A stretch of 64,000 nt of DNA. Origin: an uncultured Kiloniellales bacterium. Its GTDB lineage: Bacteria; Actinomycetota; Acidimicrobiia; Spongiisociales; UBA5794. A program made the position numbers and the translations under genes. Location of the stretch: NCBI GenBank assembly GCA_964195155.1, contig CAXMOP010000115.1, positions 4,986 to 68,985 of the forward strand, written 5' to 3'. Shown here in pieces: positions 2,286-59,368 of the stretch. The notes below the pieces were generated by a model that saw only the letters and a list, made by a program, of their open reading frames with translations, had not been told where the DNA came from and made no database searches. Numbering within the stretch: position 1 is the first letter of the stretch; every line of letters begins with the position of its first letter.

Positions 2286-2303
2286 ACCGTGTAGACAAGG
2301 GGC

Positions 2304-18047: not shown

Positions 18048-19598
18048 GTGAGCACCGAAGACCGCATCAACCGCCTGCGTGAACTGCGCCAGGAGGCCAT
18101 GGAGCCAGCAAACCAGCGCGCCGTCGACCGCCAGCACGATTTGGGCAAGCTCACGGCTCGCGAGCGCGTCGAGTTGCTGCTCGACAAGGGCTCGTTCCAG
18201 GAAATGGACATGTTCGTGCGCCACCAGGCCAAGGGCTTCGGCATCGAGGACAAGCGGCCGCCCGGCGACGCAGTCATCACCGGATGGGGGACGATCGATG
18301 GACGCACTGCGTTCGTTTTTGCCGAGGACTTCACCGCGTTTGGCGGCAGCCTCGGAGAAGCGGTAGCCGACAAGATCTGCAAGGTGCTTGACCTGGCAAT
18401 GGAGAACGGGGTCCCGATCATCGGGATCAAGGACTCCGGGGGCGCCCGGATCCAGGAAGGAGTCGTCGCACTCGACGGCTACGGTCGAATCTTCGAGAGG
18501 AACGTGCGGGCGTCGGGCGTCATCCCGCAGATCTCGGTCATCATGGGCCCCTGCGCCGGTGGAGCCGTGTACTCGCCGGCGATCACCGATTTCGTGTACC
18601 AGGTCGATGAGACCTCCCACCTGTTCATCACCGGGCCCGAGGTGATCAAGGCCGTGACCGGTGAAGACGTGACCATGGAGGAGCTGGGCGGGGCCCACGC
18701 CCACGCCACCCGTTCAGGAGTGACTCACTTCGTCGTCGACGACGACCGCGCCGCCATGGAGGAAGTCCGCTATCTGTTGTCGTTCCTACCGCAGAACAAC
18801 ATGGAGGTGGCTCCCTTCTTCACACCACTCGACAGCCCGGACCGCACCGAAGAAGACCTGACCACCATCATCCCCGAGTCTCCGAATCAGCCGTACGACA
18901 TGGTCGACGTCGTCGCCGCGATCTTCGACGACGGCGAGTTCTATCAGGTCCACGAGCACTTCGCCATGAATCTCATCGTCGGGTTCGCCCGGCTCGACGG
19001 TTACACCGTCGGCGTGATCGGCAACCAGCCGATGTCCCTGGCCGGCAGCCTCGACATCGACGCCTCGGTCAAGGGAGCCCGCTTCGTGCGGTTCTGCGAC
19101 GCTTTCAACATCCCGCTCGTCACCCTCGTCGACGTCCCCGGGTTCATGCCGGGCGTCGATCAGGAGCATGAGGGGATCATCCGCCACGGTGCCAAGCTGC
19201 TGTATGCCTTCTCTGAGGCGACGGTGCCACGGGTGACCGTCATCACGCGCAAGGCGTACGGGGGCGCCTATCTGGTGATGAACTCACGGGCCCTCAGGGC
19301 CGATATGGCGTTTGCGTGGCCCACCGCAGAGATCGCGGTGATGGGCGCACCAGGGGCGGTCAACATCATCCACCGCCGCACGATCGCCGCCGCCGACGAC
19401 CCGGACGCCGAGCGAGAAGCCCTGATCACGGACTACGAAGAGAAATTCTCCAATCCGTACATCGCAGCGGAGCGGGGCCTGATCGACGACGTCATCGAGG
19501 CAAGGGAGACCCGGCCGCGGTTGATCCGTTCCCTGGCCATGCTCCGCAACAAGCGCGAGGCGATGCCGCCCAAGAAGCACGGGAACATCCCGTTGTAG
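18048..19598 (+). CDS. Acyl-CoA carboxylase carboxyltransferase (beta) subunit, PccB/AccD5-like
   Basis: 516 aa with two crotonase-like carboxyltransferase halves, and a strong full-length match to propionyl-CoA carboxylase beta. GTG start at 18048. Confidence 0.9.
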   Translation: MSTEDRINRLRELRQEAMEPANQRAVDRQHDLGKLTARERVELLLDKGSFQEMDMFVRHQAKGFGIEDKRPPGDAVITGWGTIDGRTAFVFAEDFTAFGGSLGEAVADKICKVLDLAMENGVPIIGIKDSGGARIQEGVVALDGYGRIFERNVRASGVIPQISVIMGPCAGGAVYSPAITDFVYQVDETSHLFITGPEVIKAVTGEDVTMEELGGAHAHATRSGVTHFVVDDDRAAMEEVRYLLSFLPQNNMEVAPFFTPLDSPDRTEEDLTTIIPESPNQPYDMVDVVAAIFDDGEFYQVHEHFAMNLIVGFARLDGYTVGVIGNQPMSLAGSLDIDASVKGARFVRFCDAFNIPLVTLVDVPGFMPGVDQEHEGIIRHGAKLLYAFSEATVPRVTVITRKAYGGAYLVMNSRALRADMAFAWPTAEIAVMGAPGAVNIIHRRTIAAADDPDAEREALITDYEEKFSNPYIAAERGLIDDVIEARETRPRLIRSLAMLRNKREAMPPKKHGNIPL

Positions 19599-19629
19599 GA
19601 GTCGCGAGTCGCCAGTCGCCAGTTGCGAG
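19599..19629. repeat. Heptamer array GAGTCGC GAGTCGC CAGTCGC CAGTTGC
   Basis: Directly visible between the carboxylase beta and alpha genes. Confidence 0.85.
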
Positions 19630-19700
19630 CCCGATCGCTCGTAACGGAATGCTCACGTTCGAGGTCCGACCCCCACCCACCCTTCTCCTAGGATTCACCC

Positions 19701-21446
19701 GTGGATTCTGTTCTGATCGCCAACCGTGGAGAGATTGCCGTCCGGGTGATTCGCGCCGCCCACGACCTCGGGCTGCGCGCCATCGCGGTGTATTCCGAGC
19801 TCGACCGTGACGCCGTCCACGTCGAGCTCGCCGACGAGGCATGGAACATCGGGCCGGGCCCCTCTGCCGAGTCCTACCTGAACATCCCCAACATTCTCGA
19901 GGCCGCAGACGCCTCGAAGGCTGAAGCAGTACATCCGGGATACGGGTTCCTGGCCGAGAATGCAGGCTTCGCCCAGGCCGTCATTGACGCCGGGCTTATC
20001 TGGGTGGGTCCTCCGCCGGCGGCGATCGCGACCATGGGTGACAAGATCGCCTCACGATCCGCGGCCCAAGCGGCCGGGGTTGCTTCGGTTCCCGGAACCC
20101 TCGAACCGCTTGCCAGCGTGGACGAGGTGAGGGCTTTTGCCGAGGAGCACGGCCTTCCGATCGCCATCAAGGCGGCTCACGGCGGCGGCGGCAAGGGCCT
20201 GAAGGTCGTGCGAGAGGGCGACGATATCGAGGCCGCCTACGAAGGAGCCAAGCGGGAAGCCGACGCCTGGTTCGGCAACCCGGAGGTCTACGTCGAGCGC
20301 TATCTCGACAACCCGCGGCACATCGAGGCCCAGATCATGTTCGACACCCACGGCAACGGCGTCTTCCTCGGCGAACGCGACTGCTCGATCCAACGCCGGC
20401 ACCAGAAGCTGATCGAGGAGACGCCGGCACCGCGTTTCACCGATGAACAGCGGTCGGCCCTGGAGAGCGCCGCGCTCGCGGTGGCCGGTGCGGCCGACTA
20501 CGAGAACGCCGGCACCGTTGAATTCCTGATGGACGGGACCGGCGCCCTTTTCTTTCTCGAGATGAATACCCGAATCCAGGTCGAGCACACCATCACCGAA
20601 GAAGCCACCGGCATCGACCTCGTTGCAGAACAGCTTCGCGTCGCTGCCGGCGAGCCGCTTTCCTTCAGCACGGCCGCGTCGCGGGGCCACGTCATCGAGT
20701 TCCGCCTCAACGCCGAGGACCCCGCCCGTGGTTTCCTGCCGACGCCGGGCACGCTCTCTCGGTATCGAGAATCCGCCGGCCGGGGCATCCGCGTCGACAG
20801 CGGGGTCCGTCAGGGATCCACGATCTCGCAGTACTACGACAACCTCATCGCCAAGCTCATCGTCTCGGGTCGGGACCGGACCGAGGCCATCGACCGAGCC
20901 AAGCGCGCCCTGAGCGAGTTCGAGATCGGCGGCGTGGACACCACAATTCCGGCCCACCTCCTCATCCTTGACAACGAGGACTTCGTTTCGGGCAACCTGT
21001 CGACACGGCTGCTCGAAGAGGACCTGGATTTCTCAGGGCTCGCCACCAAGACGGCACCGGCGCTCCCCGAAGAGACCGAGCTCCAGGAACGCGGTATGAC
21101 GGTCGAGGTTGGCGGACGCCGATACGACGTGCGCTACTGGTCCCAAGTCATCGCCCCGACGACGTCCGGTCAGCGCCCCGCGCCGCGGCGGCGTGCGCCC
21201 AAGCTGTCGGAACGCTCCGCACCAGGCGACACCGAGGGAATCGTCACCGCCCCCATGCAGGGCACCATCGTCAAGGTGCACCACGGCGCCGGGGACGCCG
21301 TCGTGGCAGGGGAACCGGTGTGTGTTCTCGAGGCCATGAAGATGGAAAACGAGATCAAAGCGCCCAGCGACGGCGAGATCGTCGACCTCAGAGTGCAGCC
21401 CGGCGACACCGTGGCACCGGGCGCCGTGTTGATGGTGATTCGTTGA
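19701..21446 (+). CDS. Acyl-CoA carboxylase alpha subunit (biotin carboxylase plus C-terminal biotinyl domain, AMKM motif)
   Basis: The N-terminus VLIANRGEIAVRVIRA and the ATP-grasp are present. The C-terminal EAMKMENEI carries the biotinyl-lysine motif. Confidence 0.9.
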   Translation: MDSVLIANRGEIAVRVIRAAHDLGLRAIAVYSELDRDAVHVELADEAWNIGPGPSAESYLNIPNILEAADASKAEAVHPGYGFLAENAGFAQAVIDAGLIWVGPPPAAIATMGDKIASRSAAQAAGVASVPGTLEPLASVDEVRAFAEEHGLPIAIKAAHGGGGKGLKVVREGDDIEAAYEGAKREADAWFGNPEVYVERYLDNPRHIEAQIMFDTHGNGVFLGERDCSIQRRHQKLIEETPAPRFTDEQRSALESAALAVAGAADYENAGTVEFLMDGTGALFFLEMNTRIQVEHTITEEATGIDLVAEQLRVAAGEPLSFSTAASRGHVIEFRLNAEDPARGFLPTPGTLSRYRESAGRGIRVDSGVRQGSTISQYYDNLIAKLIVSGRDRTEAIDRAKRALSEFEIGGVDTTIPAHLLILDNEDFVSGNLSTRLLEEDLDFSGLATKTAPALPEETELQERGMTVEVGGRRYDVRYWSQVIAPTTSGQRPAPRRRAPKLSERSAPGDTEGIVTAPMQGTIVKVHHGAGDAVVAGEPVCVLEAMKMENEIKAPSDGEIVDLRVQPGDTVAPGAVLMVIR

Positions 21447-21492
21447 GCGAGTCGCTCATCGACGACGCCTACGTCGAGAGTTCAGGACCCTC

Positions 21493-23094
21493 CTAGGAAC
21501 CGGGCCGGTACCGGCCGAATACGCCTTCGAGCGTCGTTGAGACCTCGCCGACCGTGGCCCCCACCCGAAGAGCCTCTCGCATCGGATACAGCAGGTTGCC
21601 ATCCCCGGTGGCCGCATCCCGGACGGCGGCGAGCGAATCGAGGGCATCTTCGTCACGACCGGCGCGGTGTGCCTTCAGCGCCCGAATCTGATCGGCCTCG
21701 GTCTCCGGGTCGACCTGGAGCACCGCTATGGCCGGGCCCCCCTCCCCGCCTGGCGCGCTACTCCCCCCCAACGGGGGAGGGACTTCTCCCTGGTAACGAT
21801 TCACGCCAACGATGGTCACGGCGCCGGACTCAACACCGCGGGCGTACCGGTAGGCAGCCTCCTCGATCGCACCTTGCTGAAAACCGGCTTCGATGGCCGC
21901 AACCGCGCCGCCGAAGCCGTCGATGCGCTCGATCAACTCGGTTGCCTCGGCTTCGAGGCGGTCGGTGAGCGCCTCCACGAAATACGATCCGGCCAGCGGG
22001 TCGACCACTGCAGTCACCCCGGTCTCATCGGCCAGGATCTGCTGCGTTCTGAGAGCGACCAATGCGGCCTCCTCCGTCGGCAGGCCCAGCGCCTCGTCAA
22101 AGGAGTTGGTGTGCAAGGACTGGGTTCCGCCCAGCGTTGCGGCCAACGCCTGATAAGCGGTGCGAGTGATGTTGTTCAACGGTTGCTGGGCGGTGAGGGA
22201 CGAGCCTGCGGTCTGGGTGTGGAACCGCATTCGCCAGGACTCCGGTGCGCTGGCCCCGATGCGTTCTCGCATCAGGCGCGCCCACAGCCGCCGGGCGGCA
22301 CGGTATTTGGCTGCCTCCTCGAACAACCCGTTGTGGGCGTTCCAGAAGAACGACAGCCTTGGAGCAAACACATCGAGATCCAGCCCCGCGCGACGGGCCG
22401 CTTCGACATAGGCCAGACCGTCGGCGATGGTGAACGCGATCTCCTGGGCGGCGGTCGAGCCGGCCTCGCGGATGTGGTACCCGCTGATCGAGATCGTGTT
22501 CCAGTTGGGAAGGGCCTCAACGCAGTAGCCAAACAGATCGGTCACCAGGCGCATCGACGGCTCCGGCGGATAGATGTACGTGCCCCGTGCGATGTACTCC
22601 TTCAAAATGTCGTTCTGCACCGTGCCGCGGATCCGCTCCGGCGCCGCGCCCTGTTCGGTCGCCACCAGCTCGTAGAGGAGCAACAGGATTGCCGCGGTGG
22701 CGTTGATGGTCATCGAGGTGGTCACCTCGTCGAGAGGGATCTGATCAAACAGCCGGCGCATGTCCTCGATCGAGTCGATGGCCACCCCGACCTTTCCCAC
22801 CTCACCGGCGGCCATCTGGTGATCCGAGTCGTATCCCATTTGGGTAGGCAGGTCGAAGGCCACCGAAAGCCCGGTCTGTCCGCCGTCGAGGAGTGCGCGG
22901 AATCGCCGGTTGGTGTCGTCGGCGTCGCCAAATCCGGCGTACTGGCGGATGGTCCACGGCCGCTCGGTATACATCGAGGCGTACGGCCCACGCGTGTACG
23001 GGTACTCCCCAGGCTCTCCAAGCTGTTTCGCGGGATCCCACCCGGCGAGATCGTCGGCGGTGTAATCCATCTTCGACGGTTGGTCTTCTGCCAT
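21493..23094 (-). CDS. Methylmalonyl-CoA mutase large-subunit catalytic (N-terminal TIM barrel) domain protein
   Basis: 533 aa with conserved [14 protein letters not shown] and substrate-barrel motifs. The B12-binding domain is absent, so this is the split form. ATG at 23094 with a GAGGGG Shine-Dalgarno sequence. Confidence 0.85.
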
Positions 23095-23125
23095 CACATA
23101 CCCCTCATATTTGGAGGGTCTTCCT

Positions 23126-37414: not shown

Positions 37415-37585
37415 CCCTACGTCCCGGTCTCCAGAGGCAGGACCGGGTACAGCACGAACACCGATCACCCGGTCTGAGCGACATCGCCGACATCCACGAG
37501 TGCTCTGGAACGGCACTTCGGAGTGCGGTCAGTTTCCTTGCATTTCTTCTGGAATCTGTCACCCGCACCGTGTAGGATCGAACAT

Positions 37586-38821
37586 ATGTTCGATAGAGAA
37601 TTCACCTCTGTCCCCGATGGGCTCGACGACATGGAACCAAGCGTGGAGTTGGCAACCGCGCTCAATGACATCGACGTCGATCTGGTGTCGCCGCATGACC
37701 GGATCATCGTCATCCGCGCCTACGCCCGAATGGAGTCCTACTACCAGGCCCGCAAGTATCGCGCCATGGCCTCGGTCGCCGACGCCTTGGAAGAAGACGA
37801 CATGCAGCATGGCCTCGACACCGCTGCCGCCGAGATCCAAGCCGCCCTGTGTCTGACCCGCCGCGCTACCGAAACCGAACTCGGGTTCGCGTTGGATCTG
37901 TGGCATCGCCTTCCGCAGGTCTGGTCTGCGTTGGCGGCGGGGATGATCGACTACCGGAGGGCCCGGGTCATCTCCCTCGGGACGGTCCACCTCGACACCG
38001 GTGCCGCATGGGAAGTCGTCGAACGCATCTTGGAGGACGCCGGCCGGCTCACCTCCGGCGAGCTGCGGAGCCGTCTGCACCGGATGGCGATCGAAGCCGA
38101 CCCGGAGGACGCGCGGCTCCGCTACGAGGACGCCGTCAAGGAGCGGCGAGTGGTTCTCGAACCCGCCGATGACGGGACCGCCAACCTGCTCGGCCTCCAG
38201 CTGGCTCCCCATCGCGCCGCAGCTGCTTCCCGTCATGTGAACCATCTCGCCCGATCGCTGAGGACGAGGGACGAGACCCGCACCATGGATCAACTCCGCG
38301 CCGACGTCCTCATCGACCTGCTCTTGGGCAAGGCACACAGCGGCAAGAAGGCGGGAGCGGTGAATTTGCGGGTCGATCTGGAAACCCTCTCAGGCCTCGC
38401 CGAAGACGCAGGTGAGTTGAACGGCTACGGCCCGGTGATCGCCGACATCGCCCGCCAGATCGCCGCTGAAGCCGAAGATGCCGAATGGCGCTACGCCATC
38501 ACCGACCCGCACACCGGCCAATTGATCACCGACGGGACCACCCGCCGTCGCCCCACCGCCGCGTTGCGCCGCACCGTGGAGGCAAGAGATCAGACCTGTG
38601 TGTTCCCCGGCTGTCGCGTGCCCGCGGTCGACTGCGACTTCGACCACAGCACCCGATGGGCCGACGGCGGCGAAACCACAGAAGACAACGGCGCCCCCCT
38701 CTGTCGCCACAACCACATCACCAAGGACCAACTCGGTTGGAGCTACCGGCGGCTCCGTGACGGCCGCTACCGATGGCGCAGCCGACTCGGCCACACCTAT
38801 TACAGCGCCAGATCCCCATAG
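37586..38821 (+). CDS. DUF222 (REP13E12-family) HNH endonuclease
   Basis: The N-terminal DUF222 region is followed by a C-terminal HNH motif, CVFPGCRVPAVDCDFDHSTRWADGGETTEDNGAPLCRHNH. Confidence 0.8.
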   Translation: MFDREFTSVPDGLDDMEPSVELATALNDIDVDLVSPHDRIIVIRAYARMESYYQARKYRAMASVADALEEDDMQHGLDTAAAEIQAALCLTRRATETELGFALDLWHRLPQVWSALAAGMIDYRRARVISLGTVHLDTGAAWEVVERILEDAGRLTSGELRSRLHRMAIEADPEDARLRYEDAVKERRVVLEPADDGTANLLGLQLAPHRAAAASRHVNHLARSLRTRDETRTMDQLRADVLIDLLLGKAHSGKKAGAVNLRVDLETLSGLAEDAGELNGYGPVIADIARQIAAEAEDAEWRYAITDPHTGQLITDGTTRRRPTAALRRTVEARDQTCVFPGCRVPAVDCDFDHSTRWADGGETTEDNGAPLCRHNHITKDQLGWSYRRLRDGRYRWRSRLGHTYYSARSP

Positions 38822-38838
38822 TCGATCGCGCCGGCGCG

Positions 38839-39912
38839 CTACCCGACCGTGTACAGCTCGCGGTCCGACCGGTTCAACCGCTCCACGCCGTCGTCGGTGA
38901 CCGTCACGATGTCTTCGATCCGCATCCCCCAGTGACCGGGTTGGTAGATGCCCGGCTCGATGGAAAAAGCCATGCCGGAGACCAGCTCAGTGGTGTCTCC
39001 TTTGACGAGATAGGGTCGCTCGTGGGTGTCGAGGCCGATACCGTGCCCGGTGCGGTGGATGAAGAGCTCGCCGTATCCGCCGTCCTCGATCACGGTCCGA
39101 GCTGCGACATCAATGGACCCGGCGGTTACCCCCGGCTTCACCGCATCCACGGCCGATCGTTGCGCGGCGCCGAGCACCTCGTACGCCTCGGCGAACCCCC
39201 CCGGGGGGTCTCCCACCACGAACATGCGAGTGGTGTCGGATCCGTATCCATCGAGCCAGCCGCCGAAGTCAACGACAACGGCGTCGCCACGCTCGATCAT
39301 CCGGCCGGTCGGCTCGTGGTGGGGCGATGCGCCGTTTGGCCCGGAGGCGACGATGGCAAAGCCGCTCCTCTGATGGCCCGAGTCGAGCGTCATCTCGTCG
39401 ATCAGCCGCGACAGCTCGCGTTCGCTGCGCCCTGAGAACCTGGTCGCCCCCAGCCGGGCAACCACCGCGTCGGTGGCTGCACCCGCGGCGCGGAGAGACG
39501 CGATCTCGCCCTCGTCCTTCACCATGCGCAGCTCGGACATCAGCGGTTCGGCCGGTTCGAACCGCGCACCCGGCAGCCGGGTCTGCATGCCGATCAAGAA
39601 GGTTGCCCAGGTCTGGTTGCCAACGGCGACGGTGGAAGCGTTGCCGATCAGGCCAGCGAGGATCGCGATTGGATCCTCGGTCTCCGACCAGGCCCGCTTC
39701 TCCACACCGGACTCGACGCGCACCTCCTCGAGCACCGGTACCAACAGGACTGGATCACCCTCGGCGGGCAGCACCAGTGCGGTGATGCGCTCGTTCTCCA
39801 TTGCCTGGTACCCGATCAGATACGGCAGATCGGATCCAACGGTGACGACGAGGGCATCGACGCCGCGGCGAGCCATCTCCAGTCGCGCCGAAGCGATCCG
39901 GCGCTCGTTCAC
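38839..39912 (-). CDS. M24-family Xaa-Pro aminopeptidase/dipeptidase
   Basis: A pita-bread fold with HRTGHGIGLDTHE metal ligands. GTG start at 39912. Confidence 0.8.
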   Translation of the reverse strand: MNERRIASARLEMARRGVDALVVTVGSDLPYLIGYQAMENERITALVLPAEGDPVLLVPVLEEVRVESGVEKRAWSETEDPIAILAGLIGNASTVAVGNQTWATFLIGMQTRLPGARFEPAEPLMSELRMVKDEGEIASLRAAGAATDAVVARLGATRFSGRSERELSRLIDEMTLDSGHQRSGFAIVASGPNGASPHHEPTGRMIERGDAVVVDFGGWLDGYGSDTTRMFVVGDPPGGFAEAYEVLGAAQRSAVDAVKPGVTAGSIDVAARTVIEDGGYGELFIHRTGHGIGLDTHERPYLVKGDTTELVSGMAFSIEPGIYQPGHWGMRIEDIVTVTDDGVERLNRSDRELYTVG

Positions 39913-41555
39913 GTGGCCTGGGCGAGCGAGTCGCGGGCGTGATAGGAGGAACGGACCAGCGGACCGGACTCAACATGGCTGATCCCGAGAGACTCGCCGT
40001 GGCTGCGATATCTGGCGAACTCATCGGGATGGACGTAGCGATGGATCGGGCGGTGCCGCGGCGTTGGCCGGAGGTACTGGCCGATCGTGACCAGATCGAC
40101 GCCGACCGCCCGGAGGTCGGCGAGCGTCCCGAGCACCTCTTCCTCGGTCTCCCCCATCCCGACGATCAGGCCCGACTTCACCGTGCCCGCCGGGTTGAGC
40201 CACTTGGCTCTCGCCAGCAGGGTCAACGACCGTGCGTAGTTGGCGGCGGTGCGGATCTCCCGTTGCAGACGCAGCACGGTCTCGGTGTTGTGATTGAGGA
40301 CCTCGGGCTTCTCGCCGACCATGGACTCGAGAGCGTCCCGATCGCCCTTGAAGTCGGGGATCAGCACCTCGACGTCGCAGCCGGGAACGAGGTCGCGGAT
40401 CCTTCGGACCGTCTCAGCAAAGATCCCGGCGCCACCGTCGGGAAGGTCGTCGCGGTTGACCGAGGTCAATACCGCGTGACGCAATCCCATCTGCTGTATG
40501 GCCTCGGCGGCCCGCAGCGGCTCATCGACGTCGACCTCGCCGGGCTTGCCCGTGTTGACGTCGCAGAAGGAACAGGCGCGGGTGCAGGTATCACCGAGCA
40601 GCATCAAGGTCGCAGTGCCGGCCTCCCAGCACTCATAGATGTTGGGGCAACCCGCTTCCTCGCACACGGTGTTGAGCTCGAGTCCCCGCATCAGCTGCTT
40701 CAGCTCCCCGTATCCGTCAGAGCCAAGGTTTGCCCTGACCTTCATCCATTCGGGACGAGCCGGCTCGCCCGGGAGGAGGCCACCGATCAGGATCGGGGTC
40801 TCCCCACGGCCGGCCGCGGAGAACGCACCGGATGCGACCATCGCATCGACGTCGTACCGGCCGGATCGCTCGCTTGGCCGGAAGGCGCCGAGCTGTATCT
40901 CCGGCTCCACGGATCCAAAGACTGCCGCTGCGTGCGGAACCAGGGCATCGATGACGGACTCCATCGGGAGATGCTCACCGATCAGCTGGGCGATCGAGGT
41001 CACCGGCCGGTCGGCGATCCCGCATGGGACGATGTTGGAGAAGTATGCAAGGTCCGGGTCCACGTTGAGGGCAAAGCCGTGGGTTGAAACTCCCCGGGCA
41101 ACCCGAACCCCGATGGCGGCCACCTTGCCCCGCCCGGTCCACACGCCGGTCTGGCCGGCCTCGGCCCAGGCTTCGATGCCGAGATCGGCGAGGGCGGCGA
41201 TGAGCATCGCCTCGAGGCGGCGAACGTGGCCGACCATGTCCCAGCCATTTGCCAGCTTCGGGATAGCAACGATCGGGTAGCCGACGAGCTGGCCGGGGCC
41301 GTGGTACGTGATGTCGCCGCCGCGATCGACGTGGTGCAACCTGGCACCAATCGCGTCGAGGTCGGCCTCGGCGATGGTGAGATTGGATCCGTCACCGTTT
41401 CGGCCGACCGTGTAGGTATGCGGGTGCTCCAGCAGCAGCAGGTAGTCGTCCGCGGACCGACCCTCGGTTCGTCCCTCCCAGAACGCACGCTGCAGGTCCC
41501 ATGCCTCGTCGTACTCGACGCGGCCGAGCCACCGCACACGGAGGCGGTGGCTCAT
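39909..41555 (-). CDS. In-frame fusion of octanoyltransferase LipB (N-terminal, about 238 aa) and lipoyl synthase LipA (C-terminal, about 310 aa)
   Basis: ATG at 41555 forms an ATGA overlap with the E2 gene stop. The LipB catalytic region includes TYHGPGQLVGYPI and the catalytic C of ...VPCGI. LipA then follows with RPEWMKV, the [4Fe-4S] triad CEEAGCPNIYEC and the radical-SAM triad CTRACSFC. There is no stop codon between the two halves. Confidence 0.8.
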   Translation of the reverse strand: MSHRLRVRWLGRVEYDEAWDLQRAFWEGRTEGRSADDYLLLLEHPHTYTVGRNGDGSNLTIAEADLDAIGARLHHVDRGGDITYHGPGQLVGYPIVAIPKLANGWDMVGHVRRLEAMLIAALADLGIEAWAEAGQTGVWTGRGKVAAIGVRVARGVSTHGFALNVDPDLAYFSNIVPCGIADRPVTSIAQLIGEHLPMESVIDALVPHAAAVFGSVEPEIQLGAFRPSERSGRYDVDAMVASGAFSAAGRGETPILIGGLLPGEPARPEWMKVRANLGSDGYGELKQLMRGLELNTVCEEAGCPNIYECWEAGTATLMLLGDTCTRACSFCDVNTGKPGEVDVDEPLRAAEAIQQMGLRHAVLTSVNRDDLPDGGAGIFAETVRRIRDLVPGCDVEVLIPDFKGDRDALESMVGEKPEVLNHNTETVLRLQREIRTAANYARSLTLLARAKWLNPAGTVKSGLIVGMGETEEEVLGTLADLRAVGVDLVTIGQYLRPTPRHRPIHRYVHPDEFARYRSHGESLGISHVESGPLVRSSYHARDSLAQAT

Positions 41556-43048
41556 CGCAGTTCCTGTTCCCAATCCCAGGATTCGAGGTTCCGCTTGATT
41601 TGGGCGAGGAACAGCACCGCCGTCGAGCCGTCGAATGCCCGGTGGTCCCAGCTGAGCCCGAGATACCCGATGTGACGAATGGCAACGGTGTCGGTGCCGT
41701 CGGGAAGGGTCACCACAACCGGGCGCTTCACCACGGTGTCGGTGGACAGGATGGCGACGTTTGGCTGGTTGATGATCGGTGCGCTCATGAACGAGCCGAA
41801 CGGCCCCGGGTTGGTGATCGTGAACGTGCTGGTGGAAAGATCCTCCGGATGGAGCTTCCCGGCGCGGGCGCGTTCCGCAACACCGCGGATGTCCCGGGCA
41901 AGGCCGGTGAGGCTGCCCGAGTCGGCCTCAGGGAGGGTCAGGACGATGAGCCCTCCCTGACTGAGGTCGACGGCGATGCCGAGGTCAACGCCGCTGTGGA
42001 ACGTCTGTGTGCCCGCTTCGAGGTCGAACGAGCTGTTCACCGCCGGGTAGGCGCCGAGGGCATCGATCGTCGCCCGCGAGATGAACGGGAGGTAGGTGAG
42101 CGAGAAACCCTCGGTTTCCTTGAAACGCGGCCCGTGCCCTTGACGGGCTCGGGCGACCGACTCGAAATCCACCTCGACCGAGGTCCACACGTGAGCCGAA
42201 GTTTGCTTCGAGGCGATCATGTGCTCTGCCGTGACGCGACGGATCTTCGTCATCGGTGTGACCCCGCCGGCCTCGTCGGCCGTAGGCGCCGCCGCGTCGG
42301 CCGCGGGCACGACCAGTTCGGCCGCTGGTGGCTCTGCTCGCTCCTGGGGCTCGACGGCGACCGCAACCACCGGCTCCTCGACAATCACTTTGGTCGTTGC
42401 GGCCACTGCGCCCGTGGCAACGAATGCCTCAACATCCTTTCGGGTGATCCGGCCACCGGTGCCGGTGCCGACAACCTGATCGAGGTCCACGCCGTTGTCG
42501 GCGGCGAGCTTCCGCACCACCGGCGAGAGCTGCGCCCGTCGTGAGTCGTCGCCTGCAACAGCGGTCGTCGCGGCGGCTGCGGCGACGGGGACGGCCGGTT
42601 GGACGGGAGCCGACTCGGCCGGCGTCGATGCCACCGCGTCGGAGGACTCGGGCGGCGGTCGCTCGGTACCCGTTGGCCCCTGCTGCGACCACACCGCGCC
42701 CGCGCCGGCCGGTGCCTGGGCGGCGACCGGCTGTGGCGAAGGGGCCTCTTCGGGGGCTGCTTCCGCTGCTGGCTCCGTCACCGGTTCTTCCGCCGCCCCC
42801 GGCTCCTCGTCGGCGCCGGTGATGACGACGATCTCGGTACCGACCTCGACCGTTTCGCCCTCCTGGACGAGGATCTGCTCGATGACGCCGGCTACCGGCG
42901 ACGGCATCTCGGTGTCGACCTTGTCGGTGGAGATCTCGACGAGAACCTCATCGATGGCGATCTCGTCGCCGACCTGCTTCGCCCAGGAAAGGATGGTGCC
43001 CTCGGTGACCGTTTCACCGAGTTGGGGCATCGTGACCGTCACTGCCAT
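41552..43048 (-). CDS. Dihydrolipoyllysine-residue acyltransferase (E2 of a 2-oxo-acid dehydrogenase complex; DlaT/SucB-like)
   Basis: ATG at 43048, 9 nt after GGAGGAG. A single lipoyl domain (EISTDKVDTE) is followed by an Ala/Pro linker, a PSBD and a catalytic domain with the DHRAFDG motif. Confidence 0.85.
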   Translation of the reverse strand: MAVTVTMPQLGETVTEGTILSWAKQVGDEIAIDEVLVEISTDKVDTEMPSPVAGVIEQILVQEGETVEVGTEIVVITGADEEPGAAEEPVTEPAAEAAPEEAPSPQPVAAQAPAGAGAVWSQQGPTGTERPPPESSDAVASTPAESAPVQPAVPVAAAAATTAVAGDDSRRAQLSPVVRKLAADNGVDLDQVVGTGTGGRITRKDVEAFVATGAVAATTKVIVEEPVVAVAVEPQERAEPPAAELVVPAADAAAPTADEAGGVTPMTKIRRVTAEHMIASKQTSAHVWTSVEVDFESVARARQGHGPRFKETEGFSLTYLPFISRATIDALGAYPAVNSSFDLEAGTQTFHSGVDLGIAVDLSQGGLIVLTLPEADSGSLTGLARDIRGVAERARAGKLHPEDLSTSTFTITNPGPFGSFMSAPIINQPNVAILSTDTVVKRPVVVTLPDGTDTVAIRHIGYLGLSWDHRAFDGSTAVLFLAQIKRNLESWDWEQELR

Positions 43049-43089
43049 CGGAAAGCGTCTCCTCCGTACGTGTTCAGTTTTCTGTTGTG

Positions 43090-44508
43090 CTAGTGCAGCG
43101 GTCGACCGGCGGCGGCCATCAACGTCTCGCCGATCGCCTCGGATACGGTCGGGTGGGCATGAATAAACGCCGCGGCCTCGGCCGGCACGGCCTCCCATCC
43201 AACAACGTACATCAACTCGTGAATGATCTCGCCGGCCAGGGGATCCACGACGGTGGCGCCAAGCACCGGGCCGTTCTTCTCTGCCACGATCTTGACCGTT
43301 CCTCCGGTCTCGTTGTGAATGATCGCCCGGGCGAGCCCCCGCATGCCGTGCTCGGTGGTCTCTACGTCGTGCCCGAGCGCGATCGCCTCCTCCTCGGTCA
43401 GCCCGACCGAGGCAACTTCGGGCTGCGAGTAGACGATCATCGGAATGGCCCGGTAATTGATTGCATCGCTCGCTCCGGTGGCGATGTGGGTGATCGCCGC
43501 CATCCCCTCGGCGAACCCGACATGGGCGAGCTGCGCGGTGCCGGCGACGATGTCACCGATCGCATAAATCCGGGGATTCGCAGTCTGCATCGTCGTCTCA
43601 TCCACCACGATGAAACCGCTGTCAATCGTCACGCCCGCATCCTCGAGACCGATGTTCGACGTCACCGGTTTGCGCCCAACCGCGACCAGGACGACATCGA
43701 CCGTGACCGCGTCGTCTGCGAATGGGACCGATACTTCTGAGCCCTTGATCTCGGCGGGCCCGACCGCGGTGCCGGTCCTAATGGCGACGCCCTTTCGTTT
43801 GAGGGCTCTGCTCAACGCCTTTGCCGCCTCGGGCTCCATGCCCGGCAGTACCTGGTCCTCCATCTCGAAAAGGTGGACCTCGCTGCCGACGTCGGCGAGC
43901 AACGAGGCGAATTCGATCCCAATGGCACCGGCGCCGATCACCGCTACCCGACGGGGCTGATCCATCCAGTCCAGCGCTTCGTCGCTGGTGACGATCCATT
44001 CGCCGTCGATGTCGTAGCCGGGAATCGCCCCGGGAACCGACCCGGTGGCAACGATGATGTGCTTGGCCTCGAGCGTCGTATTCTCGCCATCGGCGAGCGC
44101 AACGTGGACCTGGCCGTCGACGATCCGCCCGAACCCATCGAGGATGTCAACCCCGCGGGCCTTGAGCAGGCCCGTAAGACCCTTCACCAGCCCGTCGACC
44201 ACGCCGTTCTTCCGTTCGAGCGCGGCTCGCCAGTCGAGTTTCGGCTCGCCGGCCTGCACGCCGAACGTGTCGGCGGTGGCCACCGTGTGAAAGACGTGGG
44301 CGGTCTCGAGCCAGCTCTTGGCCGGAATACAACCTCGGACCAGGCAGGTGCCCCCCACCGTGTCCTTCTCGACGAGTGCGACGGAAAGCCCGAAGTTGTG
44401 CGCATACAGGGCCGCCGCGTAGCCGCCGGGGCCTCCGCCGATGATCACCACGTCGTACAACAGACCTCCACGGAGCGACGACTTGAGGTTAGTGGAGGGA
44501 GTGGCCAT
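43090..44508 (-). CDS. lpd: Dihydrolipoyl dehydrogenase (E3)
   Basis: GGGPGGY FAD motif, the GTCLVRGCIPAK redox disulfide and a C-terminal HAHPT interface motif. The exact start is uncertain: ATG at 44508, or TTG about 14 codons downstream. Confidence 0.85.
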   Translation of the reverse strand: MATPSTNLKSSLRGGLLYDVVIIGGGPGGYAAALYAHNFGLSVALVEKDTVGGTCLVRGCIPAKSWLETAHVFHTVATADTFGVQAGEPKLDWRAALERKNGVVDGLVKGLTGLLKARGVDILDGFGRIVDGQVHVALADGENTTLEAKHIIVATGSVPGAIPGYDIDGEWIVTSDEALDWMDQPRRVAVIGAGAIGIEFASLLADVGSEVHLFEMEDQVLPGMEPEAAKALSRALKRKGVAIRTGTAVGPAEIKGSEVSVPFADDAVTVDVVLVAVGRKPVTSNIGLEDAGVTIDSGFIVVDETTMQTANPRIYAIGDIVAGTAQLAHVGFAEGMAAITHIATGASDAINYRAIPMIVYSQPEVASVGLTEEEAIALGHDVETTEHGMRGLARAIIHNETGGTVKIVAEKNGPVLGATVVDPLAGEIIHELMYVVGWEAVPAEAAAFIHAHPTVSEAIGETLMAAAGRPLH

Positions 44509-44595
44509 GCTTGTTTGGCTATGCAGACCCGCTACCTGATCCTTGCCTCGTTGATCACCGGTCTCGCCATCCTGATCGCCGCCGCGCTGTGGTTC

Positions 44596-45420
44596 TCAGG
44601 AATCTGATCCGATCCCCAGCAGCCGCTCGGCGTTCTCATAGAGCACCCGGTGCCTCAGCCGATCATCCGCCAGCTCCCACTCCTTGAGTTGCTCGTCGAG
44701 ATCGGCAAACGCCCAGCCGCTGCCGAACAGCGCCTTGTCGGTGTCGAGCATTGAGGCTGAATCGTCGAACACCGTGGCGTATTCGGCGGCGGGCGCCCCG
44801 ATCAGGCTGAGCCACACGTTCTGTTTGTGCGAGGCAACCGCAAGCGCCTCCTGGCGCCACAGCCCTCCGTTGTGGGCCATCACGACTCTCAGGTCCGGAT
44901 ACAGGGAAGCGACCACGTCGACACCCCGGGGGTCGCCGTGGGAGAGTCGCAGCCCAGCGCCACCCGGCAGGCCGCGCCCCAGGCGCGAGATGCCGGTGTG
45001 GAACAGCACGATCAGACCGTGGTCGGAGGCGTTTGCCCACAGCGTGTGGGTCGAGCGCTCGGCCGGGTCGAAGGCCTGAGCCACCGGGTCGAAGGCCAAC
45101 CCGGCAAGGCCGAGGCGCGCCGCCTCGTGGACGCCTGCCACCGCCTTTGCCCCCATCGCCGGGTCTACCGAGCCGAAGCCGATGAAGATCGATTGATCCG
45201 AGGCAACGATCTCTGCCACGTCCTCGCTCGAGAACGGGCGGTGCCGTGTCGTTGAAACGGTGTCAAGGCCAAGAATCACTGCTCTGCCGTCGCGCCGGCG
45301 ATAGTGGTCGGCCACGTCCACGGCGGTCAGGACATCCAGGCCGACGTCGAATGGTGCCACCGGGCCTTCGACGAATTCGGCGACCGGCGGATGCACATGG
45401 AAGTCGATGAAGGTCCTCAA
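44596..45420 (-). CDS. Amidohydrolase-2 family metal-dependent hydrolase (TIM barrel)
   Basis: The N-terminal IDFHVH motif is present. TTG start. Confidence 0.7.
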   Translation of the reverse strand: MRTFIDFHVHPPVAEFVEGPVAPFDVGLDVLTAVDVADHYRRRDGRAVILGLDTVSTTRHRPFSSEDVAEIVASDQSIFIGFGSVDPAMGAKAVAGVHEAARLGLAGLAFDPVAQAFDPAERSTHTLWANASDHGLIVLFHTGISRLGRGLPGGAGLRLSHGDPRGVDVVASLYPDLRVVMAHNGGLWRQEALAVASHKQNVWLSLIGAPAAEYATVFDDSASMLDTDKALFGSGWAFADLDEQLKEWELADDRLRHRVLYENAERLLGIGSDS

Positions 45421-45620
45421 GAGTGCCGGAACCCGCGATTTCGTGCCTCCGCTGCGGTGTCGGGGCTGAAGGACTGGAGGCCGTTGTGCTTTACCAGCGC
45501 ATCGCGCTCGACGCGGTCGCTCAAGACCGCGTAATCGGCGTCGTCGTCGCAGTCGAACAGCTCCATGTCATCGCGGGTGCCGATGAATCGGTGCTCGGCA
45601 AACGTGCTCAGGCGGGCCAT
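45417..45620 (-). CDS. Small hypothetical protein (67 aa)
   Basis: The ORF fills a 200-nt gap with a 4-nt overlap to the next start. It has no Shine-Dalgarno sequence and weak support. Confidence 0.3.
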   Translation of the reverse strand: MARLSTFAEHRFIGTRDDMELFDCDDDADYAVLSDRVERDALVKHNGLQSFSPDTAAEARNRGFRHS

Positions 45621-45642
45621 GACCGCGGACGATAGCGCCGCC

Positions 45643-46044
45643 CTAGTCTTGACCCGCCTGCTCGCCGACCGCGCCGAGCTCGGCGAGATATGCGGCTTGC
45701 AGGTCGAGCACCGCGAAGATCACCGACGGCTCGTACCCGTACCCCTGTTCGATGGCCCGCTCCTGGGCATATGCGGCAGCGTCGACTCCTGCAACGATTG
45801 CCGCACCCTCTCGATGGTCCGGGCGTTGCAGATAGTGCATCTCCCACTCGAGGATGCGACGCACATCACCACGCCCGACTTCCGCCTTGGTCGATTTGCT
45901 CAGGCCGTTCCACACGAAGTCGAGCGCGTCCTCGACGCTGTAGACGATTGCCACCTCACTCGGAGTGCGCTCCTGGAGCAAGAGCCCGACCCCGAAGATC
46001 ACCAGAACAGCAACCAGAGCAAGCAGCAGGAGGAGTGGAGCCAT
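45643..46044 (-). CDS. Hypothetical membrane-anchored protein
   Basis: An N-terminal TM helix (MAPLLLLLALVAVLVIFGVGLLL) is followed by a soluble domain. ATG at 46044. Confidence 0.5.
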   Translation of the reverse strand: MAPLLLLLALVAVLVIFGVGLLLQERTPSEVAIVYSVEDALDFVWNGLSKSTKAEVGRGDVRRILEWEMHYLQRPDHREGAAIVAGVDAAAYAQERAIEQGYGYEPSVIFAVLDLQAAYLAELGAVGEQAGQD

Positions 46045-48314: not shown

Positions 48315-49067
48315 GTGACCGACCTGCTCGTCGTCGACGACCTCCATGCCGCCGCCGAAGGCACCGAGATCCTCAAGGGCATCAACCTCACCGTCGCCCC
48401 CGGGGAGACCCACGCCATCATGGGGCCGAACGGGTCGGGAAAGTCGACGCTGGCCAATGTGCTGCTCGGCCACCCCGGCTACCTGGTCACCAAGGGCACG
48501 GTCACCTACAAAGGCGTGGACATCACCCGCATGACCCCGGAAAAGCGGGGCAAGGCCGGCATGTTCCTCGGCTTTCAATACCCACAAGAGATCCCCGGGG
48601 TCTCGGTGGTGAACTTCCTGCGCACGGCACTGTCCAACCGCACCGGTACCGACCTCACCGTGCTCGAGCTGCGCCTCAAGGTCATGGATGCTCTGCAGGA
48701 CCTCGACATGGATCCGAGCTTTGCCGATCGCTATCTGAACGAAGGTTTCTCCGGCGGTGAGCGCAAACGCAACGAGATTCTCCAAATGGCGGTACTCGAG
48801 CCCGACCTCGCCATCCTCGACGAGACCGACTCCGGTCTCGACATCGACGCGCTGAAGATCGTCGCCGAGGGAATCGAGCGACTGCGAAACGACGAGCGCG
48901 GCATTGTCGTAATCACGCATTACCAGCGCATGCTCGACTACATCACCCCCGACGTCGTCCATGTCATACTCGACGGCCGTATCGTCGAGGCGGGCGGACC
49001 CGACCTTGCGGACGCCATCGAAGACACCGGCTACGAGCGGTATCGCACCGAGGCGGCTGCGGGGTGA
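48315..49067 (+). CDS. sufC: Fe-S cluster assembly ATPase SufC
   Basis: The Walker A motif GPNGSGKST, the ABC signature and a full-length SufC match are present. GTG start. Confidence 0.9.
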   Translation: MTDLLVVDDLHAAAEGTEILKGINLTVAPGETHAIMGPNGSGKSTLANVLLGHPGYLVTKGTVTYKGVDITRMTPEKRGKAGMFLGFQYPQEIPGVSVVNFLRTALSNRTGTDLTVLELRLKVMDALQDLDMDPSFADRYLNEGFSGGERKRNEILQMAVLEPDLAILDETDSGLDIDALKIVAEGIERLRNDERGIVVITHYQRMLDYITPDVVHVILDGRIVEAGGPDLADAIEDTGYERYRTEAAAG

Positions 49068-50296
49068 ACGACCTCGCTCACCTCCGCGAAGACTTCCCGA
49101 TCCTCGGCCGCGAGGTGAACGGCCATCCGCTGGTCTACCTGGACTCGGCTGCCACGACCCAGAAGCCGGTACAAGTGATCGACGCCGTCGACCACTTCTA
49201 CCGGACATCGAACGCCAACGTCCACCGTGGCGCCTACGCCCTCTCCGAGGAAGCCACGCAGGCCTACGAGGGAGCACGGGCCAAGGTGGCGTCCTTCATC
49301 AACGCCGGCTCCAAGAACGAGGTCGTATTCACCAGGGGGACCACCTCCGGCCTCAACCAAATTGCCTACGGCTACGGCCTCAACGTGCTCAAACCCGGAG
49401 ACAAGGTGCTGCTGACGATCATGGAGCACCATTCGAACATCGTGCCCTGGCAGCTCGTTGCCAAACACACCGGGATCGAACTGGTGTACCTGACGCTGAA
49501 CGACGATTTCGAGGTCGACCTCGATGGTCTCGAGGAAGTGCTCGACGACCGGGTGAAGATCATCACCGTCTCCGGGATGTCGAACGTCACCGGAGCGCTC
49601 GGCCCCGTCCGAGAGCTGGCCGATGCAGCCAAGAGCGTCGGGGCCCTGGTCGTGGTCGATGGTGCCCAGCTCGTGCCGCACCACCCCACCGACGTTGCCG
49701 AGCTCGGCGCCGACTTCCTGGTGTTTTCCGGGCACAAGATGCTCGGCCCCACCGGCATCGGGGCAATGTGGGGCAGGCCGGAGCGCCTGGAGGAGCTCGA
49801 GCCCACCGAGGGCGGCGGTGAGATGATCTCCGACGTCCAGCTCTACGAGTCGCGTTGGGCACCGGTGCCGCACAAGTTCGAGGCGGGAACACCACCCATC
49901 GCCCAGGCAGTCGGGCTCGGCGCCGCTGTCGAGTATCTCGAAAAGGTAGGGATGCCGGCGATCCGCGATCACGAGATCGAGATCACCCGCTACGCGCTCG
50001 ACCGCCTCGCCGAGGTTCCCGATCTGACCGTCTATGGCCCTTCGGACACAACCAAACGCGGCGGTGCCGTCAGCTTCGAGCTCGCCGACATCCACGCCCA
50101 CGACGTCGCAACCATCCTCGACCAGTACGGCGTGGCGGTCCGTGCCGGGCATCATTGCGCAAAGCCGCTCATGCGCCACCTCGACGTGGCCGCCACCGCC
50201 CGTGCCTCGTTCTATCTCTACAACAACAACGACGACGTCGACCGACTCATCGAGGCGCTCTATGAAGCCCGCAAAGTCTTCGGCCTCGACGACTGA
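49064..50296 (+). CDS. sufS: Cysteine desulfurase SufS
   Basis: A GTGA overlap with sufC. The PLP lysine lies in SGHKMLGPTG, and the active-site Cys in RAGHHCA. Confidence 0.9.
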   Translation: MNDLAHLREDFPILGREVNGHPLVYLDSAATTQKPVQVIDAVDHFYRTSNANVHRGAYALSEEATQAYEGARAKVASFINAGSKNEVVFTRGTTSGLNQIAYGYGLNVLKPGDKVLLTIMEHHSNIVPWQLVAKHTGIELVYLTLNDDFEVDLDGLEEVLDDRVKIITVSGMSNVTGALGPVRELADAAKSVGALVVVDGAQLVPHHPTDVAELGADFLVFSGHKMLGPTGIGAMWGRPERLEELEPTEGGGEMISDVQLYESRWAPVPHKFEAGTPPIAQAVGLGAAVEYLEKVGMPAIRDHEIEITRYALDRLAEVPDLTVYGPSDTTKRGGAVSFELADIHAHDVATILDQYGVAVRAGHHCAKPLMRHLDVAATARASFYLYNNNDDVDRLIEALYEARKVFGLDD

Positions 50297-50326
50297 CCAA
50301 ACCGGGCGGGGCGGTATCGTTTTGCC

Positions 50327-50782
50327 ATGAGCAATCTCGAAGAGCTGTACCGCCAGGTCATTCTCGACCACTACCGCAACCCACGGCGCCGGGGAAAGCT
50401 GACCGGGCCGCACGTCCATGCCGAGGGGCTCAATCCGTCGTGCGGCGACGAGTTCTTCCTCGATCTGCTCATCGAAGACGGCGTGATCACCGATATGGCG
50501 ATCGATGGCCAGGGGTGCTCCATCTCGCAGGCTTCGGGTTCGATGATGACCGACGCCATTGTCGGCAAGAGCGTCGAGGACGTCCGGATCGTGTCCGGCC
50601 AGTTCAAGCTGATGATGGGGATCGACGAGGGTGACGACCCGCTCGACCATGAGCGCCCCGGAGCCGTGCTCGGCGATCTCGAGGCATTGCAGGGGGTCCG
50701 AAAGTTTCCGGTGCGCATCAAGTGTGCGGATCTGCCCTGGACGACGCTGGCCGACGCCCTTGATCATGCAGAGGATGAGTAG
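50327..50782 (+). CDS. sufU: SufU/IscU-like zinc-dependent sulfurtransferase scaffold
   Basis: The NPSCGDE, GQGCSIS and C-terminal CADLPW cysteines are present. Confidence 0.85.
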   Translation: MSNLEELYRQVILDHYRNPRRRGKLTGPHVHAEGLNPSCGDEFFLDLLIEDGVITDMAIDGQGCSISQASGSMMTDAIVGKSVEDVRIVSGQFKLMMGIDEGDDPLDHERPGAVLGDLEALQGVRKFPVRIKCADLPWTTLADALDHAEDE

Positions 50783-57777: not shown

Positions 57778-58085
57778 GGCGCCTCCAGCTCGAGATAGAC
57801 ATCGCCGTCTCTCACTGCCACCGGGAAGACCGGCACCGGAGCCGTCGCCGGCAACGTCTGCGGCTCGCCGGTGACCAGGTCGAACGGGGATCCGTGGCGC
57901 GGGCACTCCACCTCGCCGTCGAAGATCTCGCCCTCCGACAGCGAAGCCTTCGCGTGGCTGCACTGGTTGCCCAGGGCGTGCACTTCGTCGCCGATCCGGA
58001 ACAGCGCGATCTCGGTCTCCCCGATTTCGACCAACACGCCCCGGCCATCCGGGAGCTGATCGAGTGGCGCCACCTTGACTTCCAT
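57774..58085 (-). CDS. Rieske [2Fe-2S] ferredoxin-like protein embedded in the suf operon
   Basis: ATG at 58085. The CSH...CPRHG Rieske ligands are present. 103 aa. Confidence 0.8.
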   Translation of the reverse strand: MEVKVAPLDQLPDGRGVLVEIGETEIALFRIGDEVHALGNQCSHAKASLSEGEIFDGEVECPRHGSPFDLVTGEPQTLPATAPVPVFPVAVRDGDVYLELEAP

Positions 58086-59368
58086 CAAACCCGACCTGCG
58101 AGCTGCGCGGTGACAAACTTGCCGTTGATCCATTTTCGAACCGGGGCCACGAGCTCGCGCTGGGGGAGTTTGACGAGGGCCTCCTCAAAAAAGCCGTGGA
58201 CCTGCAGCTGGTCGGCGCGGGGCGCTCCGAGGCCCCGAGTCATCAGGTAGTAGCGCTGGGCTGCATCGAGGGGGCCAACCGTCGAGCCGTGACCGCATTT
58301 GACGTCGTTGGCAAGGATCTCGAGGTTGGGAACCGATTGTGCCGAGGCACCCTCGGACAGGATGAGGTTGCGATTGGTCTGGAACGCCTCGGTCTTCTGC
58401 CCGGTCTCTTCGATCCTGATCATCCCGGTGAACACCGAGCGCGCCTCATCCTCGACTGCGCCCTTGAGAAACATGTCGGAGCGGGTATTGGTGCCGATGT
58501 GGCGCATGAAGTACCGGTAGTCGAGGGTTTGCTCGGCCTCGCCGAAGTAGGCGCCGACGACGTCGGCGGCCGACCCGGTGCCTTGCATGCGCATGTCGAG
58601 GTGAAGCCGTGAGAGCTTGCCGCCAAGCCCGACCTCGGCGAAGCGGAGCGTTCCGTCGCGGCCGATGGAGGCATTGGCGTTTCCCAGGGACCGGGTCGCA
58701 TAGCCCCAGTTCTGGACGACGGTGATGGCGAGCCGTGCGTTGGTGCCGACGGCAGCGGCAATCTGGGGAACGACGACCAGGTCGTCGTTGGGTTGAGACC
58801 TGAGATGGATGACGAGTGCAGCTTCTGCACCATCGTCGACCGCGACCACGATGCGGGGAAACGTCACCGATCGAGGCTGCGTTGCCTGGACGTCGAGGTA
58901 GATGACACCGGGGGCGGTCGTTCCCGTTGGAACGTGCACAAATGCCCCGTCGGCGCCGAATGCGGTAGCGGCGAGCGCAAAGCGGTCGCGCACATCGCCA
59001 AGTCCTGCCTCGGCGAGCACCGACTCGATGAGCTCGGGCTTGGCGCTCGACGAGCTATGCAGCGAAGCGAAGGTCACATCGGCGCCGTCCTGGTCCTGCC
59101 CGATCCAGTGTCCGTCGATCAGTGATGCAGACAACTTTGTGTCGAATATTCCGCCGAGCGGGTCGTCGTCGAGTGGGTTGCCCGCTCTCGGGACCGGCGC
59201 ATAGTCGTCCAGATCGAATCCGAGCTCAATGTAGCGCCAGATCTCCTCGGCGCTGTCGGGCATTGCCGTCTCGGCGAACGCCTCGGCGGCGGCCGCCCGC
59301 TGTTCACGACGCCATCCGGCATCTTCGGCGCCGATGGCGTCGACGGTATCTTGATCCAAGGCGGGCAC
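58085..59368 (-). CDS. sufD: SufD (SufB/SufD family) Fe-S cluster assembly protein
   Basis: 427 aa with a SufBD beta-helix core. GTG start at 59368. Confidence 0.8.
   Translation of the reverse strand: MPALDQDTVDAIGAEDAGWRREQRAAAAEAFAETAMPDSAEEIWRYIELGFDLDDYAPVPRAGNPLDDDPLGGIFDTKLSASLIDGHWIGQDQDGADVTFASLHSSSSAKPELIESVLAEAGLGDVRDRFALAATAFGADGAFVHVPTGTTAPGVIYLDVQATQPRSVTFPRIVVAVDDGAEAALVIHLRSQPNDDLVVVPQIAAAVGTNARLAITVVQNWGYATRSLGNANASIGRDGTLRFAEVGLGGKLSRLHLDMRMQGTGSAADVVGAYFGEAEQTLDYRYFMRHIGTNTRSDMFLKGAVEDEARSVFTGMIRIEETGQKTEAFQTNRNLILSEGASAQSVPNLEILANDVKCGHGSTVGPLDAAQRYYLMTRGLGAPRADQLQVHGFFEEALVKLPQRELVAPVRKWINGKFVTAQLAGRV

Follow-up and report, generated by a model that had tools for sequence, protein, structure and literature searches.

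The 64,000-nucleotide (nt) stretch of DNA analysed here, called the window throughout (positions 4,986 to 68,985 of contig CAXMOP010000115.1, assembly GCA_964195155.1, from an uncultured bacterium labelled Kiloniellales and placed by GTDB in the Acidimicrobiia), carries a gene, lipBA, in which octanoyltransferase (LipB) and lipoyl synthase (LipA) are joined in a single open reading frame (ORF) of 548 amino acids (aa). The ORF occupies 39909..41555 of the minus strand, begins with ATG, ends with the TGA at 39909-39911 and has no stop codon between its halves, as an original prediction made from the sequence alone had described. A TTG located 18 nt upstream of the ATG offers an alternative start that would lengthen the protein to 554 aa. 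Two genes on the same strand precede lipBA and a third follows it. The lpd gene for dihydrolipoyl dehydrogenase (E3; 472 aa, 43090..44508, minus strand; TIGR01350 matched at 448.7 bits, cut-off 408.8) ends 41 nt before the gene for the E2 dihydrolipoyl acyltransferase (498 aa, 41552..43048, minus strand), whose stop codon overlaps the lipBA start in the tetranucleotide ATGA (41552..41555, minus strand). Both the overlap and the location of E3 just upstream had been predicted, and both are borne out. Downstream, the gene for an M24 Xaa-Pro peptidase (38839..39912, minus strand; Pfam Creatinase_N and Peptidase_M24) starts with a GTG that overlaps the lipBA stop codon in the GTGA at 39909-39912, and is probably the last gene of the lipBA transcription unit.

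The E2 protein has a single lipoyl domain, an E3-binding domain and an acyltransferase catalytic domain (Pfam Biotin_lipoyl, E3_binding and 2-oxoacid_dh), with the lipoyl-lysine of its TDKV motif at K43 of the 498-aa form. Its ORF extends at most to 548 aa (41552-43198, from the ATG at 43198), a length that equals that of lipBA by coincidence. Translation most likely begins at the 43048 ATG; the sequence GGAGGA lies 11 nt before it, the gene callers of four assemblies also give 498 aa, and the extra first 50 residues of the longer form are rich in Arg and without homology. The best-scoring complex model, SucB_Actino, reached 396.8 bits, below its cut-off of 423.45. Ahead of the lipBA start, within the last E2 codons (…EQELR*), lies an AGGAA resembling a Shine-Dalgarno (SD) sequence (41561-41565). 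A promoter and terminator scan of 38400-45700 returned nothing above shuffle expectation. The window had been said to lack an E1 gene, and we recovered none: a Pfam scan of 22 further large window ORFs gave no E1_dh match, and a tblastn search of the window with the E1 alpha-beta protein of Candidatus (Ca.) Actinomarina matched only a transketolase, weakly.

Pfam divides the lipBA protein into LplA-B_cat (residues 15-207), the end part of LIAS_N (268-303) and Radical_SAM (320-480). The LipB octanoyltransferase domain comprises residues 1-215 (40911..41555, minus strand), and two NCBIfam equivalog models align with residues 3-214 above their curated cut-offs, PRK14345 at 197.8 bits (cut-off 155) and TIGR00214 at 150.1 bits (cut-off 83.55). 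Residues 5-223 align with residues 14-220 of Mycobacterium tuberculosis LipB (1w66), and the half also aligns with Thermus thermophilus LipB (2qhs). The catalytic dyad corresponds to Lys144 (in GKVAAIGV) and Cys178 (in IVPCGI), the counterparts in 1w66 being RKVAAIGV and IVPCGI; the M. tuberculosis dyad is Cys176/Lys142. The LipB core that had been predicted is thus present with its catalytic residues. Its proposed extent of residues 1-238 was too long, given that the fold ends near residue 215 and residues 216-250 form a linker.

The LipA lipoyl synthase domain is complete (residues 251-548; 39909..40805, minus strand). The NCBIfam equivalog TIGR00510 matches residues 267-544 at 353.8 bits (cut-off 310.25) and PRK05481 scores 401 bits (cut-off 203), the LipA matches together spanning residues 267-547. 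Residues 265-542 align with residues 43-317 of M. tuberculosis LipA (5exi), and all motifs are in place. These are the auxiliary-cluster motif CX4CX5C (C298-EEAG-C303-PNIYE-C309), which matches 5exi and 4u0p; the radical S-adenosylmethionine (SAM) motif CX3CX2C (C324-TRA-C328-SF-C331), kept in all Acidimicrobiia homologues; and the C-terminal RSSY motif with its serine ligand (R535-S-S-Y538), which again matches 5exi and 4u0p. Both cysteine triads, correctly read in the original prediction as the mark of a complete LipA, are invariant in an alignment of 72 Acidimicrobiia sequences.

It is conceivable that only one of the two halves is catalytic, a degenerate LipB module serving, for example, to recruit LipA to E2 while LipM or LplA encoded elsewhere transfers the octanoyl group. 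Within the LplA/LipB/BirA superfamily, LipB-fold domains have taken on other roles, and the search for further copies of lipA or lipB covered the window only. However, Lys144 and Cys178 and the motifs that surround them are invariant both in the 72-sequence alignment and in 43 full-length fusions of other lineages (described below), the LipB equivalog models are matched above their cut-offs, and the conservation of the LipB half (mean top-residue frequency of 0.68 in 70 species-level sequences) is what an enzyme under selection typically shows. We consequently regard a one-sided enzyme as very improbable. Judged by its sequence, neither half departs from the norm of its enzyme family.

We place the linker that connects the two domains at residues 216-250 (40806..40910, minus strand), where it forms a family-specific stretch of 35 residues. 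The alignments suggest that the LipB fold reaches to about residue 215 and that an N-terminal segment resembling that of actinobacterial LipA begins at about residue 250. Across the 70 species-level sequences, five linker positions are identical in every member (Q221, F225, D237, G243 and F245) and indels are nearly absent (gap fraction 0.02), while E264, P265, P268, W270 and M271 are also invariant in the stretch that runs into LipA. A spacer that was untranslated or free to evolve would not show such conservation, and the linker can therefore be considered a selected, translated part of the protein. The peptide YDVDAMVASGAFSAAGR is an example that spans it.

Within the linker lies an internal ATG (40839..40841, minus strand; Met239, in MVASGAF), a candidate vestigial or alternative LipA start, and this raises the question of whether one ORF yields two proteins, with LipA made separately by initiation at Met239 or released by cleavage of the linker. 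The codon is located about where the ancestral LipA start would be expected, the corresponding column holds ATG in 43 and TTG in 6 of 70 homologues (49 in total), and the linker is possibly exposed, given the low confidence with which it is modelled (see below). In the other 21 homologues, however, the codon is one that cannot serve as a start (CTG, CTC, CTA, CTT, AGG or CGG), SD-like tetramers precede the column in only 2 of the 70, and the internal ATG of the window itself has no ribosome-binding site. Since neither the codon nor the SD-like motif is conserved, internal initiation at position 239 is not a general requirement. The invariant residues that flank Met239 on both sides point to selection on a translated and structured segment, and the linkers of some fusions from other phyla, as short as ~5-10 residues, leave no room for a start site. 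Separate production of LipA therefore appears quite unlikely, and the suggestion that the internal ATG might be the only functional LipA start does not survive the codon survey.

A trivial explanation of the long ORF would be a sequencing or assembly artefact, in which separate lipB and lipA genes only seem merged because a stop codon was lost or a frameshift introduced. The original prediction had singled out such a lesion at the junction as what would overturn it. The identical 548-aa protein was recovered on 14 contigs, and four different samples (three from ENA and one from JGI) show it with the same neighbourhood. In a collection of 5.8 billion proteins, all 120 of the 90%-identity clusters among the matches listed are full-length fusions of 543-564 aa that contain both domains, with 98-100% query coverage and 72-100% identity, several of them on contigs of 0.3-3.1 Mb. 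The source annotation of these clusters, if there is one, reads 'lipoyl synthase [Acidimicrobiia bacterium]'. We also scanned one genome per GTDB species, using as query only an alignment of the junction region, and found the junction and its linker in at least 140 species representatives. Counts of loci given here rest on the best 80 of these at least 140 representatives, which include metagenome-assembled genomes (MAGs) of Acidimicrobiia, single-cell genomes of Ca. Actinomarina (OCS155), the 2.77-Mb Ca. Spongiisociaceae chromosome OZ241841.1 and a contig of 4.16 Mb. The frame runs unbroken from LipB into LipA in 77 of the 80, with ORFs of 533-573 aa. It is broken between the halves in three (L016, L032 and L062), and in two others (L058 and L084) the ORF is truncated. 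These five cases could speak for an artefact, but all of them come from a single MAG series with isolate names beginning with MFD, and the breaks and early ends probably reflect consensus errors rather than real pseudogenes. With the junction recurring in independent assemblies, single-cell genomes and megabase contigs, and with a linker that holds invariant residues and hardly any indels, unlike an untranslated spacer, the probability that the fusion is an artefact is practically negligible.

The same species scan shows that the fusion is the rule in this class. The window protein fits an Acidimicrobiia-type architecture, shared with the 77 intact species loci, that consists of an ORF of ~530-575 aa, a linker of the form Q-x3-F ... 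D-x5-G-x-F and an E2 gene directly upstream. The arrangement had been called unusual, a description that is apt when model organisms are the reference and that fails within the Acidimicrobiia, where it is found in at least 140 species representatives, and beyond them, where other phyla carry fusions in this and in the reverse order. The most distant members, those of Ca. Actinomarina, are ~50% identical overall to the window protein, which indicates that the fusion is old.

Gene order is conserved along with the fusion. Wherever a related locus offers enough flanking sequence, the gene directly upstream of lipBA is E2, and nearly all of the loci have lpd ahead of E2. A 4-nt NTGA overlap joins E2 and lipBA in 48 of the 73 loci with an upstream E2 (the start codon being GTG in 24, TTG in 13 and ATG in 11), and 5 more of the 73 have a TGATG overlap. 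AGGAG-like or AGGAA-like sequences occur in related loci 8-10 nt before the lipBA start, where they are supplied by the last E2 codons (…EQEL). The M24 peptidase follows lipBA in most loci outside Ca. Actinomarina; it seems to belong to the cluster as a fourth conserved gene, and nothing obvious connects it with lipoylation.

Some further observations concern individual lineages. In Ca. Actinomarina the operon reads lpd, fused E1 alpha-beta, E2 and lipBA, and thus contains a second gene fusion; this fused E1 has 668 aa with E1_dh, Transket_pyr and Transketolase_C domains (positions 2200-4206 of locus L067; also in L065-L082). In the lineage of the window, unlike in Ca. Actinomarina, lpd is followed by E2 with no E1 in between. 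Three MAGs labelled Kiloniellales, Saprospiraceae and Gammaproteobacteria (loci L005, L014 and L064, respectively), which share a CAXM accession prefix, carry an lpd-E2-lipBA-M24 cluster of the Acidimicrobiia type at 65-89% identity and are probably mis-binned or mislabelled. Of the species-level relatives, the first of these three, L005, is the closest to the window, with 84% identity over the fusion protein.

Taken together, these patterns and the absence of a second lipA or lipB from the window make it highly probable that lipBA is a genuine single-chain, bifunctional enzyme of lipoate assembly. The activities of its halves can be proposed from what is established for the chemistry of the two enzymes. 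The LipB domain would take octanoate from octanoyl-acyl carrier protein (ACP) through a thioester on Cys178 and pass it to the lipoyl-lysine of E2 (K43), encoded by the gene immediately upstream, and to other lipoyl proteins. The LipA domain would then use its radical-SAM cluster, together with a sacrificial auxiliary [4Fe-4S] cluster, to insert sulfur at C6 and C8. In evolutionary terms, the actinobacterial gene order E2-lipB-lipA would have supplied neighbouring lipB and lipA genes that became joined in an ancestor of a large clade of Acidimicrobiia, and the fusion, together with its length-conserved 35-residue linker, would have been retained by purifying selection. The likely gains are a fixed 1:1 stoichiometry and a hand-off by proximity, in which the octanoylated lipoyl domain stays near LipA, while the overlap of start and stop codons with E2 may tie expression of lipBA to that of its substrate protein. 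What the sequences show is the conserved gene order and the start/stop overlap; substrate hand-off, or the 'channelling' onto a co-translated E2 that the original prediction envisaged, is a plausible inference.

Some observations weigh against parts of this account. The codon survey described above leaves some internal initiation possible in the homologues that have a start-capable codon at position 239. Start and stop overlaps are common in compact operons and do not by themselves prove coupling. Finally, an AlphaFold2 (AF2) run on the 72-sequence alignment, whose members are at least 72% identical to the query, predicted both domains well (predicted template modelling score of 0.84), but the predicted local distance difference test score falls below 50 over residues 224-261, and this low confidence in the linker provides no interdomain geometry to back a hand-off.

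A more ambitious proposal goes further than proximity. The invariant linker might be a docking element that holds the lipoyl domain of E2, the E2 core or ACP during the passage of the lipoyl domain from the LipB site to the LipA site. The protein would then act as a processive lipoylation module associated with E2, its synthesis kept in step with that of its substrate by translational coupling. We consider this rather unlikely; if true, it would constitute the first natural evidence of an obligate physical hand-off from octanoyl transfer to sulfur insertion.

The original prediction had also called for a database search for LipB-LipA fusions, and such proteins were found both across the Acidimicrobiia and in other phyla. 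We searched 1.84 billion representatives at 50% identity with HMMER and examined the best 150 by mapping both halves. Among these 150, 71 are LipB-LipA proteins (some of them fragments), 7 are fusions in the reverse order, LipA-LipB, 69 are plain LipA and 3 are plain LipB, and the Acidimicrobiia linker is present in only 4. In 43 full-length LipB-LipA fusions from other clusters, the stretch that corresponds to residues 200-275 has 29-112 residues (76 in the window protein) and is unrelated in sequence. The catalytic residues are preserved all the same: every one of the 43 keeps K144, C178, S537 and five of the six cluster cysteines, the sixth, C328, being replaced in a single sequence, and position 536 is Thr instead of Ser in three. 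The examples with organism names are proteins from Planctomycetota (MBN1422490.1, P0127) and Ca. Sumerlaeota (MCX7013382.1, P0133) and, in the reverse order, from Oligoflexia (MBF0315764.1, P0202), and all three are annotated only as 'lipoyl synthase'. The reverse fusions (P0144, P0146, P0149, P0160, P0168, P0183 and P0202) have 469-542 aa, and one of them lies on a contig of 7.85 Mb. Fusions of other phyla therefore share with lipBA the same two domains and catalytic residues and differ from it in having unrelated linkers and identities of ~40-54%. Such levels of identity suggest independent events, and the fusion of LipB and LipA has probably arisen several times.

These results are relevant to an unsettled aspect of lipoate assembly. 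In the two-step, on-protein pathway it has not been settled how the octanoylated lipoyl domain travels from LipB to LipA, and the existence of an ancient and widespread single chain that contains both argues for a benefit of proximity. The fusion also offers a ready-made construct for structural and kinetic study of the hand-off and a compact, one-gene lipoylation module for synthetic biology. Given labels that mention only lipoyl synthase, LipB may seem to be missing from metabolic reconstructions of Acidimicrobiia, including those of the abundant marine Ca. Actinomarina. Note however that the fusion of consecutive enzymes of a pathway is common in evolution and that both chemistries are well understood, so that the surprise for the specialist is modest.

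Other genes of the window are mentioned for completeness. An ORF of the DUF222 family (432 aa; 37523-38821, plus strand) is convergent with lpd-E2-lipBA-M24 and lies directly downstream of it, and conserved synteny ends there; the assignment is a precomputed PF02720 match on a 411-aa gene call, and a Cys/His-rich stretch at its C-terminus looks HNH-like by eye. Genes for SUF Fe-S cluster assembly are found 7-18 kb from lipBA (48315-50782, plus strand, and 58085-59368, minus strand). They encode a SufC-like ABC ATPase (48315-49067, plus strand), a SufS-like cysteine desulfurase (49064-50296, plus strand), a NifU_N/SufU protein (50327-50782, plus strand) and a SufBD protein (58085-59368, minus strand). 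LipA consumes its auxiliary Fe-S cluster, and the proximity of these genes to lipBA may or may not be meaningful. A propionate/methylmalonyl-CoA cluster (18048-23097) comprises a carboxyltransferase (18048-19598), a biotin carboxylase with a biotinyl domain (19701-21446) and a methylmalonyl-CoA mutase (21493-23097, minus strand). Two large ORFs, of 741 aa (3500-5725, minus strand) and 928 aa (8345-11131, minus strand), gave no Pfam match at E<=1e-5 and have a gene-like G+C content at third codon positions (GC3) of 0.80-0.82.

Among described protein families, one of similar design is NCBIfam NF053790 ('LplA_LipA_fuse', 606 positions), in which, as in lipBA, an enzyme of lipoyl attachment is N-terminal to LipA. 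The partner in that family is the ATP-dependent ligase LplA, whereas in lipBA it is the transferase LipB, and lipBA is not a member: it scores 356.9 bits against a cut-off of 800 and matches only profile positions 332-605, the LipA half. The combination of LipB with LipA is covered by no NCBIfam model. In Shewanella (PMC4398509), the name lipBA denotes lipB and lipA co-transcribed as an operon, that is, two separate genes and proteins, unlike the fusion in the window. Searches of open-access full texts, including PMC3904984, PMC10332631 and PMC3917532, yielded no description of a natural LipB-LipA fusion, the remaining matches being to lipases. The fusion thus appears to be an undescribed variant of a well-known pathway, one that is real and conserved and not mechanistically surprising.

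A further counterpart is provided by M. tuberculosis, whose LipB (Rv2217, 1w66) and LipA (Rv2218, 5exi) align end to end with the two domains of lipBA and share their catalytic and cluster residues. The two mycobacterial enzymes (EC 2.3.1.181 and EC 2.8.1.8) are separate proteins, whereas lipBA is one chain with a 35-residue linker, overlaps the stop codon of E2 and has lpd adjoining E2. The mycobacterial lipB and lipA genes lie downstream of dlaT, as the original prediction also noted, in an order E2-lipB-lipA that is the same as that of the window.

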